In this document: positions 52,963-58,251 of the stretch, in pieces
Position numbering within the stretch: position 1 is the stretch's first letter
Layout of the letters: each line of letters opens with the position of its first letter
From: Chlorobiota bacterium
Lineage (GTDB): Bacteria > Bacteroidota > Ignavibacteria > Kapaibacteriales > UBA961
Assembly: GCA_039810485.1 (NCBI GenBank)
Contig: JBDHXA010000002.1
Coordinates: 8,597-72,596, forward strand
Length of the DNA: 64,000 nucleotides
Direction of reading: 5' to 3'
The notes under the pieces: generated by a model
What the model saw: only the letters and a program-made list of their open reading frames with translations
The model's database searches: none
Told to the model about the DNA's origin: nothing
Made by a program: the position numbers and the translations under genes

Positions 52963-54573
52963 CTATTTCAATCGTGCTATTTTCATTGCTTCTGGGAAAA
53001 GTGAAATTGCTTTCAGGGTTTGCTTGTCATTTTCGAAGGCAATGGGATAGAAAGCCGAATTTCCCCATAATGCTCGTGCAATATAGGCGCGCATCATAGT
53101 AATAATGAACGTTTTATCTTTGGCGTAGTCATCATTATTCCAAGTTATTTCCTTCGATTCCGCCATTTTTTTGAAACTAGCAAGCTGATGCTCGTTTACA
53201 GTAAATTTTTGCTGAAATTTCGCGTTGTCAGATCCATATTGCACACGAAGTCCGGAGCCTTCGCCGGCGAGAAATTCTTCAGACCAAAGCCAAAAGAGGT
53301 TTTTACTTCGAATTTGCCTGCTTAACGGCGTTATAGTGTCTGGCTTTACAATATAATCGGGTGTTATGCCGCCGCCGCCATAAACAGTGCGGCCGCCTTT
53401 TGTTTTGAACTTTGGATGCAAGCTGTCGGAAGCGGTAACATCCGATTCATGCTCAAGATTATCGCCCTCTTCACCTTCGTCGCGTCCTTCGCCCTTGTAA
53501 TATTTCGACTTATCGCTGTACGGTCGCTGTATCAAGCGACCTGAAGGCGTGTAATATCGCGAAATAGTAAGTCGAAAAGCAGAGCCGTCCGCAAGAGAAA
53601 ATTGCTGCTGCACCAATCCTTTTCCAAATGATGTTTGCCCAACGATTAGACCACGGTCGAGATCTTGAATTGCGCCGGACACAATTTCGCTGGCCGAGGC
53701 GGAGCCGCCATTGATGAGAACTATCAGTGGAATATTTTCAAACTCGCCATTGGCAGTTGCCACATATTCTTCACTTAGCTCTTCGCGCCGCGCTTTTGTG
53801 AATACAATTTTATTGCCAGTAGTTAGAAATTCATCAGCTAAACGCTTAGCTTGATCGAGATAGCCACCCGGATTGCCGCGCAAATCGAGTATCATTTTTT
53901 TCATGCCCTGATCGCGCAATTTATGAGCTGCCTCCACAAATTCACGATGAGTGTTTTCGGCAAAACGATTGATGGTTATCATTCCGACATCGGATCCGTT
54001 GATTATAAAAGCGGCATCAACAGTATAAATCGGTATTTTATCGCGAGTTATATCAAAATCGAGAAGACCGCTTACGCCGCTGCGCTTTATGCTGACTCGC
54101 ACAATAGTGCCTTTTGCGCCGCGCAATTTTTTCGGCACATCGTCGCGACTAAGTCCAATTGACAGCTGATTGTCAATTTTTACGATTTTATCGCCGGACT
54201 GGATGCCAAGAGCTTCGCTTGGACCGCCTGCTATGGGTGTTACAATGGTGATTGTATCCTGCACAATGTCATATTCTACACCGATTCCTTCGAAACTGCC
54301 GCGAAAATCCTCATTGACCTTTTTCATGGCATCGGCGGAAATATATACCGAGTGCGGATCTAACTCATTGAGCATGCCTTTTATAGCTGATTCGGTGAGT
54401 TTCTGAGTATCAACGTTATCCACATAATTTTTTGACGTTATGTTCAGCACGTCGTTAAACTTTTTTACTTGCTCGTAGATATTATCGCCGGAAATGAGTG
54501 GCGCAGCCCATATTCCGGCCAATGCTCCTATGGCGGCTGCAGCAATAATGACTATCAATTGGCTTTTTTTCAT
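52963..54573 (-). CDS. ctpA: Carboxyl-terminal processing protease (S41 family, PDZ-containing).
   Basis: PDZ (GGPSEALGIQSGDKIVKIDN), S41 motifs LDLRGNPGGY, catalytic Ser/Lys region (GGSASASEIVSGA…TSFGKGLVQ). Confidence 0.85.
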   Translation of the reverse strand: MKKSQLIVIIAAAAIGALAGIWAAPLISGDNIYEQVKKFNDVLNITSKNYVDNVDTQKLTESAIKGMLNELDPHSVYISADAMKKVNEDFRGSFEGIGVEYDIVQDTITIVTPIAGGPSEALGIQSGDKIVKIDNQLSIGLSRDDVPKKLRGAKGTIVRVSIKRSGVSGLLDFDITRDKIPIYTVDAAFIINGSDVGMITINRFAENTHREFVEAAHKLRDQGMKKMILDLRGNPGGYLDQAKRLADEFLTTGNKIVFTKARREELSEEYVATANGEFENIPLIVLINGGSASASEIVSGAIQDLDRGLIVGQTSFGKGLVQQQFSLADGSAFRLTISRYYTPSGRLIQRPYSDKSKYYKGEGRDEGEEGDNLEHESDVTASDSLHPKFKTKGGRTVYGGGGITPDYIVKPDTITPLSRQIRSKNLFWLWSEEFLAGEGSGLRVQYGSDNAKFQQKFTVNEHQLASFKKMAESKEITWNNDDYAKDKTFIITMMRAYIARALWGNSAFYPIAFENDKQTLKAISLFPEAMKIARLK

Positions 54574-54618: not shown

Positions 54619-55341
54619 TCAAAATTTAGGGAACCAATACACTGTAAATCGCGGAATAGAATACATGCGCGACAATAATCCTGACGAACCTGAGCAAAAA
54701 GTGGGATTATTGCTTATTTGTTCGCTACCAAAAGGAATTATAACACGCCATTCGGCAGTTGGAACAATCATTCCTGCGCCCGTTTCCAAATGTACTTCAA
54801 ATCCAACGCCTACATCCAAGCCAAATTTTTGGACAGAAGAAGGAGCATCGGAATCAATTACTCTTTGACCGAGCTTTTCCCACTGCATCGAAGCGCCGGC
54901 GAGCGCAAACAAGCCAATGCGTTTGTTTGAGTTTGCTACAAATCGCGCGCCTATGGAAGCAAAATTATAATGATCGCCCTCCGGACGATATTTCGTTACT
55001 TTTATATTGTTGTTGTGCGAATATATGTAGCTGGCATCAATTGTTAAAAAATCGAACAATCCGTAGTTTAATGAGCCGCCAAATGATAAAATACCATCAT
55101 AGCTTACTGATATTCTTCTGCTATCTGTACATTCTTGAAAATCAATAATCGTATTAGTTGCAACTGTGGCTCCAATACCTAACGATTTTTTGTATGGATT
55201 TGGCGGCTGCACTTCTTCATTATCATACTCTTCATCACGAGGATTACCAGAATTCTGCGCACATATCGGCGCGGCTGCTAACAATAGAAATGCTATAAGA
55301 ATAGGAATACGAAAAAGTTTTTTTGCAGTGGATGTTGTCAT
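54619..55341 (-). other. Outer-membrane beta-barrel (OmpW/porin-family-like) domain or gene embedded in the TatD reading frame.
   Basis: Candidate start MTTSTAKKLFRIPILIAFLLLAAAPICAQ at 55341. Alternating amphipathic beta-strands and a C-terminal aromatic residue (…YWFPKF). Confidence 0.45.
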
Positions 55342-56061
55342 TGAATAGATATTTTCGAGAGTTGTTGAATGTATCTCGGCAATTTTTTCAGCTATAAGCC
55401 GAACATGCGAAGGCTCGTTGCGCTTGCCGCGATATGGAACCGGAGACATATAAGGCGCATCTGTTTCTAACATTAACTTATTCAGCGGCGCTGCAGCAAC
55501 CGTATCGCCAAGGATTGATTTCTTATAGGTTATATTGCCGGTAAAAGAAACGTGCATTCTTAGACGAATTATTTCATTGAGCATTGCCGGATAGCCAGAA
55601 AAGCAATGCATGACGCCGGATAAGGAGCCATCCTGCTCCTCGGTTAGAATTTTCAGCATGTCATCGTCAGAATCTCGGTTATGCACTATAACAGGTTTAC
55701 CGACCCGTTTTGCAATTCGCAATTGCCTGCGAAACACTTCTTGCTGAGTTTCTCGCGGAGCAAAATTATAATAATAATCCAGTCCAATTTCACCGATTGC
55801 AACAACTTTCGAATCGGCGGTTTCATTTTCTATTCTCTCAAAATCAACGTACTTCGCTTCGTGTGCATGATGTGGATGAATGCCTATGCCGCGATAGATT
55901 TGAGTATGCTTTTCGGTTAATCGCTTCACAGCGTCAAAATTTCCGGGATCAATCGAAGGAATGATAATGGCTTCCACGCCGGAGTTAAAAGCTCGAGCAA
56001 TAACTTCGTCGCGGTCATTGTCAAATTGTTCGTTATCGAGATGCGAATGAGTGTCTATCAT
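54619..56061 (-). CDS. tatD: TatD-family metal-dependent hydrolase (about 253 aa) running without a stop codon into a downstream outer-membrane beta-barrel (OmpW/porin-like) ORF that retains its own signal peptide. Apparent in-frame fusion, possibly a lost stop or an indel at an A7T5 homopolymer.
   Basis: TatD motifs (MIDTHSHLD…, EIGLDYY, HCFSG, ETDAPYM, C-terminal KKLFRIP). This is immediately followed by ILIAFLLLAAAPICAQ and a roughly 200-aa beta-rich domain ending YWFPKF. The Met of MTTSTAKKLF at 55341 would give a perfect signal peptide. Confidence 0.55.
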   Translation of the reverse strand: MIDTHSHLDNEQFDNDRDEVIARAFNSGVEAIIIPSIDPGNFDAVKRLTEKHTQIYRGIGIHPHHAHEAKYVDFERIENETADSKVVAIGEIGLDYYYNFAPRETQQEVFRRQLRIAKRVGKPVIVHNRDSDDDMLKILTEEQDGSLSGVMHCFSGYPAMLNEIIRLRMHVSFTGNITYKKSILGDTVAAAPLNKLMLETDAPYMSPVPYRGKRNEPSHVRLIAEKIAEIHSTTLENIYSMTTSTAKKLFRIPILIAFLLLAAAPICAQNSGNPRDEEYDNEEVQPPNPYKKSLGIGATVATNTIIDFQECTDSRRISVSYDGILSFGGSLNYGLFDFLTIDASYIYSHNNNIKVTKYRPEGDHYNFASIGARFVANSNKRIGLFALAGASMQWEKLGQRVIDSDAPSSVQKFGLDVGVGFEVHLETGAGMIVPTAEWRVIIPFGSEQISNNPTFCSGSSGLLSRMYSIPRFTVYWFPKF

Positions 56062-56092
56062 ATTGAAAACATTAATGCTTGGCAAGCATTTT

Positions 56093-56551
56093 TTAGTTGT
56101 CGTTAATATGCCGAATGGAGATAATGCGATTATTGTCGTTTTCAGCATCGAAAACGATGCTTATTTCCCATTGAGATTGAGGCATTAGTTCACCGGCATT
56201 TTCCGGCCATTCCACAATTTTTATAGCATTTTCGGTGTACATGCATTCTTGGAAGCCGATTTCTGCCAATTCGCCTGCCGAACTGATTCGGTACAAATCA
56301 ACGTGGTAAATTGTTATTTCTTCGTCGTCGGCATCGTTTCCGAAATACTGATTTATAATGGTAAACGTTGGGCTTGACACAATGCCTTCAACGCCAAAAT
56401 AATCGCAAATACCTTTGGTAAATTCGGTTTTTCCGGCTCCTAATTCACCGGAAAGAGACACAATATCGCCCGGATGCAAACTCTCGGCAAATGTTTTACC
56501 GATATGATTCGTATCATCTTCGCTTATAGAATGGTAGCTGTTAATTTCCAT
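56093..56551 (-). CDS. tsaE: tRNA threonylcarbamoyladenosine biosynthesis ATPase TsaE (YjeE).
   Basis: P-loop LSGELGAGKTEFTKGI and a conserved HVDLYR-like segment. Start placed at the ATG at 56551 (MEINSYH...), giving 153 aa. Confidence 0.75.
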   Translation of the reverse strand: MEINSYHSISEDDTNHIGKTFAESLHPGDIVSLSGELGAGKTEFTKGICDYFGVEGIVSSPTFTIINQYFGNDADDEEITIYHVDLYRISSAGELAEIGFQECMYTENAIKIVEWPENAGELMPQSQWEISIVFDAENDNNRIISIRHINDN

Positions 56552-56636
56552 GAGCGCTGCCAAATGTGAAACATAGTAAAGTAAATTTTTATGTTCTGCA
56601 TGAGAGGAAAACTCCCCTTTTTTCGACAAAATCGAA

Positions 56637-56691: not shown

Positions 56692-58251
56692 CTATTTTGG
56701 CTCCAATGTAATCACGGGAAGCATCATTTCCTCTAGCGAGATGCCGCCATGCTGAAAACTGTCGCGATAGCGCTGCACATAATGATGATAATCTGTAGGA
56801 TACACAAAGTAATAATCCTCTTTTGCAATTATGTAATTATCAGAAACTCCCGATCCGGGCAGTTTATACTCTTCAGGATTGCGTATGTACAAAGCTGTTT
56901 TACTGTCGGCTTTTACATTTTTGCCATGCTTAAAGCGCAAACAAGTTGAAGTTTCGCGATCGCCTAATGCTTTTACAGCTCTCATGCAGCGAACCGATCC
57001 ATGATCTGTGGTTATTACAATTTTTACTTTTGGAATGCCCGATAGAGTTTTCAACATTCCGAAAAAGCTAGAATGTTGAAACCATGAACGAGTAAGCGAG
57101 CGATAAGCTGCTTCATCGGGCGCAATCTCTTTGAGTATCGGATAATCAGAACGCGAATGAGCTATCATATCTACTGCATTTACCACAATGGCAGTCAGAT
57201 GTTGCTTGGCATATCGTAAAATATCATTTTCAATTCTCTTGCCAAAATCTGTGTCTATGATTTTAATATAAGCGAGTTCGTTTTTTAACGATATTCTTCG
57301 GCGCTTAAGCAAAGCGTTGAGCAATTCTTTTTCATTTGCATTTTGGCTATGCTCCGAAGCGCTCATATCTGGCGCTAATTGCGGATAGTGCTTTTTAAGA
57401 TCCGAAGGAAATAAACCGGAAAATATTGCGTTTCTTGCATAAGGCGTCGAAGTTGGCAAAATACCGCTGTAATATTCTTTTTGTACGCTAAAATACGGAC
57501 GAATTAGATCTTCTATTATCAGCCATTGATCCAAGCGCATGCAGTCAATCACAAAGAAAAATACTGGATCACCAGATTGGAGATGCGGAATTATATGTTT
57601 GTCCACAATATTTGGAGATAGCGCCGGACCTTCGCCCGCGATCCATCGGCGATAATTATGCTCTACGTATTTGCCAAACTCAGCATTGCACTCGCGCCAT
57701 TGGTCGCTAAGAGTTTGGAGAAATCCGAGCTCCGGATGACGGTCTAAATCAATGCTCCAATTTACAAGTTTCATATAAATGTCGAGCCAATCATCCCAAT
57801 CCATAAAATCAAAAAGGCGCCTGCTTATTTCGGCAAAGCCCTGAGTGTAGTCCTGCGTCAATTTTTTTTCGGTAATACGGCGCGATTCCAAAAACTTTTT
57901 ACAAGCTGCTAATATTTGCGCAGGATTTACAGGCTTCGTCAAATAGTCGTCAATTTTCCGCCCGATCGCCTCCTCCATCAAACTCTCAGCCTCATTCTTC
58001 GTTACCATTACCACTGGCGCCGAAGGGTCGACTTCTTTGAGTTGCGCTAATGTTTCCAATCCGCTCATGCCAACCATTGATTCGTCAAGAAAAAACAAGT
58101 CATAGCGTTCGCGCTTTGCCATTTCAACAGCATCGCTGCCATTGGCTGCTGTGCTGACAATGTAGCCGCGCTGTTTCAGAAGAATAATATGCGGTTTCAG
58201 CAATTCAATTTCATCATCAATCCAAAGGATATTGCCTTTGTTTTGTTCCAT
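56692..58251 (-). CDS. porX: PorX-like response regulator: N-terminal CheY-like receiver fused to a PglZ (alkaline-phosphatase-superfamily) effector domain. Putative T9SS regulator.
   Basis: REC (ILWIDDEIELL…LFFLDESMVGMSG…K). The C-terminal domain has the PglZ-like hallmark …ITTDHGS… and is about 519 aa. The architecture and length match PorX of Porphyromonas/Flavobacterium, and T9SS cargo genes are abundant in this window. Confidence 0.6.
   Translation of the reverse strand: MEQNKGNILWIDDEIELLKPHIILLKQRGYIVSTAANGSDAVEMAKRERYDLFFLDESMVGMSGLETLAQLKEVDPSAPVVMVTKNEAESLMEEAIGRKIDDYLTKPVNPAQILAACKKFLESRRITEKKLTQDYTQGFAEISRRLFDFMDWDDWLDIYMKLVNWSIDLDRHPELGFLQTLSDQWRECNAEFGKYVEHNYRRWIAGEGPALSPNIVDKHIIPHLQSGDPVFFFVIDCMRLDQWLIIEDLIRPYFSVQKEYYSGILPTSTPYARNAIFSGLFPSDLKKHYPQLAPDMSASEHSQNANEKELLNALLKRRRISLKNELAYIKIIDTDFGKRIENDILRYAKQHLTAIVVNAVDMIAHSRSDYPILKEIAPDEAAYRSLTRSWFQHSSFFGMLKTLSGIPKVKIVITTDHGSVRCMRAVKALGDRETSTCLRFKHGKNVKADSKTALYIRNPEEYKLPGSGVSDNYIIAKEDYYFVYPTDYHHYVQRYRDSFQHGGISLEEMMLPVITLEPK

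Follow-up and report, generated by a model that had tools for sequence, protein, structure and literature searches.

The single open reading frame (ORF) lying at 54619-56061 of the window, by which we mean the whole stretch of 64,000 nucleotides analysed here, is very probably a stable two-in-one gene: a TatD-type hydrolase and, nested in the same frame, an outer-membrane (OM) barrel that would be made both from an internal start and by way of the fusion. The preliminary description of this ORF was correct, with one amendment to make: the strand, which it had left unstated, is the minus strand. It had seen TatD reading through without a stop into a second module and, indeed, one frame runs without internal stop from the ATG at 56061 (MIDTHSHLD) to the TAA at 54621-54619, i.e., 480 codons on the minus strand. 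The mechanical upstream limit of the ORF is 56148; the homologues all begin at 56061, including P0001, a protein found in public databases that is identical to the 480-aa product of the window. After TatD come a hydrophobic segment, P253-A268 (IPILIAFLLLAAAPICA), then Q269, an acidic linker, and a beta domain of about 190 aa ending in ...VYWFPKF; AF2 models the whole 480-aa protein with a mean pLDDT of 93. The features referred to below are the following:

54619..56061, minus strand: whole 480-aa ORF (TatD, signal peptide, linker, OM barrel), stop codon included
55306..56061, minus strand: TatD/YcfH-type metal-dependent hydrolase domain, aa 1-252, from the profile match
55306..55341, minus strand: dual-use segment M241-I252 (MTTSTAKKLFRI), used both as TatD's final helix and as the signal-peptide n-region, inside the TatD profile match
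55339..55341, minus strand: internal in-frame ATG (M241), candidate start of the nested barrel gene, from the conservation of this Met in the family
55258..55341, minus strand: Sec-type signal peptide M241-A268 with predicted signal peptidase I (SPase I) cleavage between A268 and Q269, from the n/h/c and -3/-1/+1 features of the family
55312..55324, minus strand: A7-C-T5 tract, codons K247 K248 L249 F250, identical in an independent assembly
55201..55257, minus strand: acidic disordered linker Q269-P287 (pLDDT about 50 in AF2)
54622..55200, minus strand: N288-F480, 8-stranded outer-membrane beta-barrel whose C-terminus carries an aromatic beta-signal (...YWFPKF)

The TatD half is complete and ends where it was expected to: PF01026 (TatD_DNase) scores 274.4 bits (cut-off 27), its positions 1-253 of 253 aligning with aa 2-251 and the match finishing with ...TAKKLFRI, and TIGR00010 gives 258.8 bits (cut-off 206). 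The metal/catalytic residues H5, H7, E91, H127, H152, and D201 are all present and are invariant in 119-120 of 120 homologues; the fold is a TIM barrel resembling solved TatDs. By profile, fold, and catalytic residues, this half is a full member of the TatD/YcfH family, for which hydrolase activity is predicted. Ordinary TatD/YcfH proteins (PF01026, TIGR00010; PDB 6l25, 1j6o, 1yix), however, stop at about 250-260 aa, whereas the window protein goes on for 228 aa more. The TIGR04038 TatD-linked radical SAM fusion, known from Ignavibacteriaceae and others, involves the same TatD subfamily in the same phylum, likewise with a second module at its C-terminus; its partner is a cytoplasmic radical-SAM module devoid of signal peptide, whereas the partner found here is a barrel that bears one, and it is already catalogued, unlike the TatD-barrel fusion. 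Profile searches gave no radical-SAM (CxxxCxxC) match in the C-terminal half of the window protein; the Ignavibacteriaceae locus L027 has such a match after TatD, at 211 bits.

What follows TatD had been taken for a classic signal-peptide core, a reading that holds for the whole family, in which the n-, h-, and c-regions and positions -3, -1, and +1 are conserved. Across 120 fusion proteins, the h-region has a median length of 16.5 aa and contains a Pro close to its end; position -1 of the SPase I site is A, S, G, or T and position -3 is small or aliphatic in every one of them, and position +1 is Q in all except one (119/120). The Q-rule at the signal-peptidase site applies in Ignavibacterium (PMC5837995), and it also fits other secreted proteins encoded in the window. 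The dual-use segment has a net charge of +1 to +4 across the fusion family, and the h-region is preceded by positive and followed by acidic residues, pointing to an N-in orientation; in the AF2 model, helix 235-250 immediately precedes helix 252-267. Directly before the mature barrel stands a Sec signal peptide bearing a predicted SPase I site, internal to the long ORF and N-terminal if the start is M241. The linker that comes next is 7-48 aa long across the family, with 41% Asp+Glu.

The last part of the protein, described beforehand as beta-barrel-like and ending in Phe, does end that way and does form a barrel, closed, antiparallel, and 8-stranded, which resembles solved OM barrels; its fold matches are membrane-embedded OM barrels, not soluble ones. 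The C-terminus of the fusion proteins is F, W, or Y in 67/120 and L or I in 22/120, the remainder having short tails after [WF][YF]PxF. PF13505 (OMP_b-brl) scores 19.8 bits against the window protein, under its gathering threshold of 28.7, and reaches E < 0.01 in 13 of 28 relatives (best E 1e-9). The C-terminal module is an 8-stranded OM barrel, and its location in the outer membrane is predicted. Its sequence is only marginally similar to those of the small OM barrels (OmpA N-domain, OprF-N, NspA, OmpW, PagL; PF13505) and, unlike barrels such as OmpA, its family is restricted to one clade and is nearly always found within a TatD ORF. Among the short barrel matches, P0154 is the sole truly standalone barrel, with a normal N-terminal signal peptide; P0141 and P0158 have their first codons 36-46 nt away from the end of a contig, most of the others start inside TatD, and all these were discarded as fragments.

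The same tatD-omp junction in relatives had been named as the outcome that would favour a genuine fused protein, and this is what the comparison returned. At least 120 database protein clusters have the fusion, at 40-68% identity and 100% coverage of the 480 aa; about 40 genomic loci from unrelated samples carry it, with 19 loci coming from GTDB species and 18 from metagenomes, and it is also present on MAG contigs of 3-4.5 Mb with different neighbour genes. The fusion is conserved across Kapabacteria/Ignavibacteria-type bacteria, far beyond chance. A stop codon between the modules is absent in every fusion member, and both halves are under purifying selection, the barrel being conserved down to 40% identity. 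As for the window itself, an independent Logan assembly is identical to it over 10,056 nt. It should be added that the C-terminal 240 aa used alone as a query gave no matches either in a word-seeded protein search or in a search of genome contigs, which is a sensitivity artefact; the fusion family was recovered with the full-length query and exhaustive phmmer. Public records label these proteins of about 480 aa just “TatD family hydrolase”, and our literature searches found no description of the TatD-barrel fusion.

The in-frame Met at 55341 had been singled out as an ideal n-region; its position is confirmed, and in most relatives it has the makings of a start codon with its own Shine-Dalgarno (SD). 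A Met occupies this position in 113/120 fusion proteins, as compared to 1/106 unfused TatDs. Within the 41 fused loci, 28 have the internal ATG and 13 are without canonical ATG+SD; an SD core (mostly GAGGT, with a 7-nt spacer) is found 4-9 nt upstream of the ATG in 25 of the 28 ATG-bearing loci versus none of the 13 ATG-less ones. This SD is written in the synonymous position of a Glu, Lys, or Gln codon: codon -4 ends in G in 25/25 cases for about 24% expected, with a P of about 1e-16 that treats lineages as independent, synonymous sites being expected to be saturated at 40-45% amino-acid identity. This is a result for the family, codon -4 being N or T in the window's subclade. Controls are without bias (22/59 G-ending codons for 22.8 expected); ATG-less fused loci and the 106 unfused TatDs show none. 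Judging from codon choice, SD and ATG are under synonymous constraint in the relatives, and such a conserved pair inside TatD argues that the barrel is an in-frame nested gene.

For the window's own gene, whose internal start is SD-less, initiation at M241 is less certain than in the relatives, and we lean towards it only slightly. The window, like L168 and L169, has kept the internal ATG and has no SD; in its subclade, Met is kept in four of the five members, P0005 having none. Some 85-90% of the genes in this organism likewise have no SD, and only about 10% of those in the clade use a strong one. At normal starts, strong SDs show a 4-fold enrichment at spacers 3-8, so the anti-SD is functional; it was deduced in this way, not read directly, as neither the window nor any of the loci contains a 16S gene. 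The mRNA around the window's internal ATG is unstructured (dG about 0), a dip that is real but confounded by AT-rich Lys, Phe, and Ile codons. A promoter/terminator scan gave no support for an internal sigma-70 promoter (7 found for 5.3 expected, no enrichment), and there is no Rfam element in the region or the whole window. In the ATG-less loci, alternative starts may exist at -7/-8 with GGAG, and they are suggestive at most because ATG-less genes are GC-richer; some members have no convincing internal start.

We propose the following scheme. A cytoplasmic housekeeping-type TatD/YcfH has lost its stop codon, and the frame continues into the precursor of a small 8-stranded OMP that overlaps TatD by the 12 codons of the dual-use segment. 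Initiation at M241 would yield a conventional OMP precursor of 240 aa, which Sec would export, SPase I would cut between A268 and Q269, and BAM would insert. Initiation at the TatD ATG, from which no termination is possible before the end of the barrel, would yield the fusion of 480 aa. The signal sequence inside it, N-in by the positive-inside rule, would lead the C-terminal half into and across Sec, and cleavage at the same site would free the barrel, while TatD would stay cytoplasmic with a short hydrophobic C-terminal tail. As TatD has no stop codon, the full-length product is presumably cut by SPase I, and this second route seems to be needed because no member has a stop and some have no convincing internal start. 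Going by precedent, an internal signal peptide may be cleaved behind a folded domain of 250 aa.

Must the covalent link have a role at all? Initiation at the internal ATG could provide essentially all of the barrel, with the 480-aa read-through as an unavoidable by-product of the same-frame overlap whose link is not selected, a possibility that we take seriously while finding it rather improbable. It accounts for the strong SD+ATG that most of the family keeps under synonymous constraint and for the existence of a standalone barrel; TatD's own start, moreover, is mostly without SD, suggesting a higher expression for the barrel than for TatD. Each TatD molecule would nevertheless still bear a signal peptide and a barrel for the cell to handle, the loci without canonical ATG+SD would have to be explained, and the fusion has been retained in many different genomic contexts. 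Such a by-product would act as a plain TatD with a tail, or be degraded.

Conversely, the arrangement itself may be what is selected, which we put forward tentatively: in a true polyprotein, TatD would fold in the cytoplasm, the signal sequence would take the ribosome to SecYEG, and SPase I would cut between A268 and Q269, giving one TatD per barrel, with TatD tail-anchored at the inner membrane by the h-region and the internal SD+ATG topping up the barrel. The sequence has what an FbcH-like polyprotein calls for, i.e., no stop between the modules, an internal n-h-c segment, a -3/-1 site, and an N-in orientation. A stricter version, in which the internal ATG would be unused, at least in the window's subclade, and the barrel would come solely from SPase I cleavage as in FbcH, is unlikely in our opinion. 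The lack of SD in the window, L168, and L169, the missing Met of P0005, the existence of ATG-less fused loci, and the full conservation of the signal-peptide and cleavage-site features agree with it; however, most genes of this organism do without SD anyway, the Met is kept in the rest of the subclade at a completely unstructured site, and the internal start is clear elsewhere in the family.

Very improbable is an uncleaved bitopic inner-membrane protein, with a cytoplasmic TatD, one transmembrane helix, and a periplasmic beta domain. AF2 does draw a single helix (252-267) between the domains, and cleavage is a prediction; yet the hydrophobic core is short with its Pro near the end, positions -1, -3, and +1 fit the SPase I and Q rules in 119-120/120 members, the beta domain, with its terminal beta-signal, resembles OM barrels embedded in the membrane and not soluble ones, linkers go down to 7 aa, too short for an uncleaved protein to reach the outer membrane, and in the standalone homologue the signal peptide is a normal N-terminal one.

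There remains the junction tract, from which the preliminary description had drawn three other readings. The 7 A and 5 T that it reported are there, the exact tract being A7-C-T5 on the minus strand (plus-strand positions 55312-55324). It reflects no more than AT-rich codons for KKLF and is not conserved in relatives: only 2 of 22 loci have the A7 run, the second Lys codon varying between K, N, S, H, R, and A. An indel at this homopolymer, or a recent pseudogenising fusion specific to the window's genome, has next to no chance of being right; homopolymers are error-prone and an OMP attached to a cytoplasmic enzyme does look strange, but the conserved ...AKKLFRI of TatD is read in the present frame before and after the tract, relatives without the homopolymer have the same fusion, the independent assembly agrees, and selection has kept both the catalytic residues and the barrel. 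Programmed ribosomal slippage on A-AAA-AAA to liberate a separate TatD is just as improbable: GC-A-AAA-AAA-C does have, formally, the form of an X-XXY-YYZ heptamer and lies in the correct phase, with stops after 24 codons in the -1 frame and after 8 in the +1 frame, but the run is not conserved, the region is unstructured and has neither an Rfam element nor a structure downstream, and the tails encoded in the alternative frames show no sequence conservation. The two-in-one gene, with both routes to the barrel, is the reading that we retain.

Each of these routes has known counterparts. Thony-Meyer et al. are said to have described FbcH of Bradyrhizobium japonicum, in 1991, as a cytochrome b/c1 precursor, and some viral polyproteins are cut by the host signal peptidase. 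They resemble our case in that one ORF gives two mature proteins, with an internal signal peptide as the SPase I split site; FbcH, however, provides two membrane subunits of one complex, whereas the TatD-barrel ORF joins a soluble enzyme and an OM barrel without known functional relation, and its cleavage is predicted. On the side of the internal start, in-frame nested genes are known in two-polypeptide phage endolysins (PMC9430671), and E. coli has in-frame iTIS in arcB, infB, and the rpn genes (bioRxiv 10.1101/520783). There too, an internal SD and start lie in the same frame, the short and long ORFs share a stop, and the internal start is marked by synonymous-site constraint; but the shorter polypeptide there belongs to the same protein, as an isoform or a subunit, whereas the TatD-barrel ORF encodes unrelated proteins for the cytoplasm and the outer membrane, with an overlap reduced to the 12-codon dual-use segment and an upstream TatD deprived of its own stop.

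In terms of annotation, a clade-specific OMP family nearly confined to TatD ORFs is invisible to gene catalogues, those of Kapabacteria, Ignavibacteria, and related “Chlorobiota”/Bacteroidota MAGs being affected. In terms of coding, it would be a clean natural case of same-frame dual coding, the same 12 codons serving as terminal helix of an enzyme and as n-region of a signal peptide. As regards protein targeting, a stop-less TatD forces the cell to handle a fusion between a cytoplasmic enzyme and a Sec substrate, and would be a natural case of internal signal-peptide processing, of which, to our knowledge, few examples exist in bacteria. If the polyprotein reading were true, an enzyme of a normally soluble nuclease family would be membrane-localised and its synthesis coupled to that of an envelope protein.

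The gene at 54619-56061 is one continuous frame in which a TatD hydrolase runs into a signal-peptide segment and a beta-barrel-like domain.

Landmarks of the TatD-barrel gene in the window
56061 (ATG, MIDTHSHLD...) to 54621-54619 (TAA), minus strand: whole ORF, a single uninterrupted frame of 480 codons
55341, minus strand: in-frame Met (M241) inside the ORF
55312-55324 in plus-strand coordinates: A7-C-T5 tract in the coding-strand reading

The N-terminal half is a genuine member of the TatD/YcfH family: residues 2-251 match Pfam TatD_DNase from one end of the profile to the other (1-253 of 253 positions; 274 bits), and the TatD part scores 259 bits against NCBIfam TIGR00010 (cut-off 206). On these matches the enzyme is complete at ...TAKKLFRI, after which, as the preliminary description had stated, the frame has no stop codon. 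It continues into a hydrophobic stretch (PILIAFLLLAAAPICA), Gln269, an acidic linker and a beta-rich domain of about 190 aa ending in ...VYWFPKF, with a weak OMP_b-brl match (E ~1e-3); the signal-peptide core, the barrel-like domain and the homopolymer tract had all been described correctly. Mechanical ORF prediction adds 29 codons 5' of the true TatD start (56061-56148, minus strand; MLKTTIIALSPFGILTTTKK...), which overlap the end of TsaE and which, from what homologues show, are noncoding.

The full 480-aa query returned an identical database protein (P0001) and at least 120 other cluster representatives, each at 40-68% identity and 100% query coverage, with lengths of 450-530 aa; those that are named carry only the label “TatD family hydrolase” and come from Ignavibacteriae, Kapabacteria or Bacteroidota MAGs. 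Fused loci were recovered from genome (19) and metagenome (18) scans, including contigs of 3.3-4.5 Mb. This comparison with the junction of relatives, proposed beforehand as a check, argues for a genuine fused protein. Slippage between overlapping genes at the homopolymer can be rejected as a conserved mechanism, since just 2 of 22 loci have the A7 run and the second Lys varies freely; no Rfam element or stable structure was found around the junction. The suggestion of a pseudogenising fusion is likewise rejected. An assembly or frameshift artefact is dismissed as well: over 10,056 nt, homopolymer included, the window and an independent Logan assembly from SRR19427095 do not differ, and the same fusion recurs in at least 120 protein clusters. 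Four fusion-bearing contigs (L005, L014, L023, L021) are filed as Patescibacteria, Hyphomicrobiales or Armatimonadota MAGs; they are probably mis-binned or mislabelled, as all other carriers are Kapabacteria/Ignavibacteria-like.

Genes flanking the TatD-barrel gene in the window
56692-58251, minus strand: PorX-like response regulator with PglZ domain
56093-56629, minus strand: TsaE
52963-54573, minus strand: S41 C-terminal processing peptidase
49278-52142, minus strand: S8 peptidase with T9SS Por_Secre_tail

The same-strand run thus reads PorX-like regulator, TsaE, TatD-barrel, S41 peptidase and S8 peptidase; its first four genes are syntenic in L168 and L169, the two closest relatives compared at the DNA level, and gaps of only 31 and 45 nt suggest an operon. 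Other lineages do not keep this order; the fusion, whose neighbours change between lineages, therefore travels as a unit.

Features computed over 120 fusion proteins, from catalytic residues to chain end
Six TatD metal/catalytic residues: invariant
Charge of the segment N-terminal of the hydrophobic core: net +1 to +4
Length of the hydrophobic core: 16.5 residues (median)
Position -1: A/S/G/T in 120/120
Position -3: small or aliphatic in all 120
Position +1: Gln in 119/120
Linker: 7-48 residues, Asp/Glu 41%
Chain end: [WF][YF]PxF-type, terminal aromatic residue in most

The family is thus a conserved stop-less fusion with an intact TatD and a signal peptide whose predicted signal peptidase I (SPase I) site is conserved. 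The Gln after the cleavage site corresponds to the “Q-rule” of Bacteroidetes SPase I substrates, for which Ignavibacterium album has a Q-value of 77% (PMC5837995); 4 of about 7 ordinary SPI-type N-termini encoded in the window are cut before Gln. Because this Gln and the -1/-3 residues are conserved, the middle segment is predicted to be a cleavable Sec signal peptide, not a stable anchor. An uncleaved envelope-spanning protein is ruled out by linkers down to 7 residues. Longer variants of 531-623 aa also occur (L019, L020, L099, L100 and the 623-aa protein P0037), in which the region after A|Q differs and is extended (AQPRVPNEDDYDLDSEYDY...); they may have an extra periplasmic segment ahead of the barrel.

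The C-terminal half has an outer-membrane-barrel fold with a beta-signal; we likened it to small OmpA/OmpW-class barrels, and in the window protein it scores below the Pfam threshold. With the last 240 aa as query, exhaustive phmmer of 1.84 billion representatives gave only 54 clusters, nearly all of them proteins of 465-520 aa in which the match starts at about residue 241; short matches are mostly fragments, starting within TatD or a few nt from a contig end. The only truly standalone copy found, P0154 (L085:2488-3243), is in the middle of its contig. A stop codon precedes its ATG by one codon, the protein begins with a signal peptide of its own (...LSWSIA|Q), and a glycosyltransferase is divergently transcribed upstream; no TatD was found near it on the 3.9-kb contig. 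From this copy, the barrel can apparently act as an independent exported protein, yet it is nearly always encoded within a TatD ORF. One should add that a word-seeded protein search and a genome scan with the same 240-aa half gave no match, though the sequence is embedded in P0001; negatives from such scans with sub-sequences should not be trusted.

The side remark that the in-frame Met at 55341 could begin a signal peptide was vindicated: this position is Met in 113 of 120 fusions and in 1 of 106 unfused TatDs, which end at 250-260 aa and have I/A/V/T/R... there. A Shine-Dalgarno (SD) sequence, complementary to the 16S 3' end, lies 4-9 nt 5' of the ATG in 25 of 28 distinct ATG-bearing fused loci (GAGGT in 19; otherwise AGGAG, AAGGT, AGGT or AAGGTGAT), kept despite different encoded residues (E-V, K-V, Q-V, E-E-I), and at this spacing in 0/13 fused loci lacking the ATG. 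As any Glu-Val pair has to be written GA-GT, only the third base of codon -4, the fourth upstream of the ATG, offers an unconstrained test. It is G in 25/25 ATG-bearing loci, against an expectation of 0.24 per locus, taken from the E/K/Q codons in those genes (P = 1e-16, Poisson-binomial, treating lineages as independent), in 1/8 ATG-less fused loci (expected 0.33-0.68 per locus) and in 22/59 unfused TatDs (expected 22.8). Synonymous sites should be saturated at 40-45% protein identity, and the SD-ATG covariation with its two negative controls argues against inheritance alone; SD and ATG are under selection in most of the family. These genomes seldom use SD (a 4-mer precedes 13-21% of first ATGs vs 6-11% background), and TatD's own start mostly lacks one; strong 5-mers are about 4-fold enriched at 3-8 nt spacers, which shows that the anti-SD works and makes the internal site an unusually strong one. 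Fused loci without the canonical Met frequently carry another in-frame ATG (L099, L019, L020, L100, L018; L022, L023, L092, L095), in some 7-8 codons upstream with GGAG or GAGGT 4-6 nt before it, in others 6-8 codons downstream (TAMRLFRL, NAMEFFKF, ARMLFRL); evolution may have moved the internal start.

In the window, L168 and L169, the ATG is present and the SD absent (ENIYS-M, ETVIS-M and ETVTT-M, respectively); in P0005, a protein of the same subclade, Ala replaces Met. In the window the RNA around the ATG is unstructured: folding energy is ~0 for 40-nt windows centred from -10 to +40 and -8 to -10 kcal/mol just upstream, a contrast to which AT-rich codons contribute. As this organism's genes mostly lack an SD, initiation at 55341 is still plausible, with the balance tipping slightly in its favour.

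We propose that translation beginning at M241 would give the barrel precursor, as the product of a gene nested in frame. Ribosomes initiating at TatD's ATG would necessarily yield the 480-aa fusion, whose internal signal sequence, oriented N-in according to the positive-inside rule, would export the C-terminal half; SPase I would then split TatD from the barrel, leaving TatD with a short hydrophobic tail. That some members have no convincing internal start suggests that this fusion route is functional, and it may matter more for the window's own gene. There are precedents for both routes: the FbcH precursor of cytochrome b/c1 in Bradyrhizobium is reportedly cleaved at an internal signal peptide. 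In-frame nested ORFs with a common stop codon are described in phage endolysins (PMC9430671), and E. coli has internal starts that are in frame (10.1101/520783).

In Ignavibacteriaceae, of the same phylum, the same TatD subfamily is fused C-terminally to a radical-SAM domain, an arrangement already catalogued (TIGR04038, “TatD family nuclease-associated radical SAM protein”; 211 bits for L027:3001-4356). This form (CxxxCxxC, ~452 aa) is found in Ignavibacteriaceae/Ignavibacteriales and some Omnitrophota, at about 20 loci besides L027 (L028-L046, L055, L056, L058, L059; several of L106-L167); TatD therefore has two mutually exclusive C-terminal fusion forms in the phylum. We found no description of the TatD-barrel arrangement in the literature or in family models. 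The gene belongs with two known kinds, in-frame nested genes and internal-signal-peptide polyproteins, and is unusual in joining unrelated proteins for different compartments, with 12 dual-use codons and an upstream gene that lacks a stop codon. It is a well-founded oddity, open to experimental test, that clearly matters for annotation.
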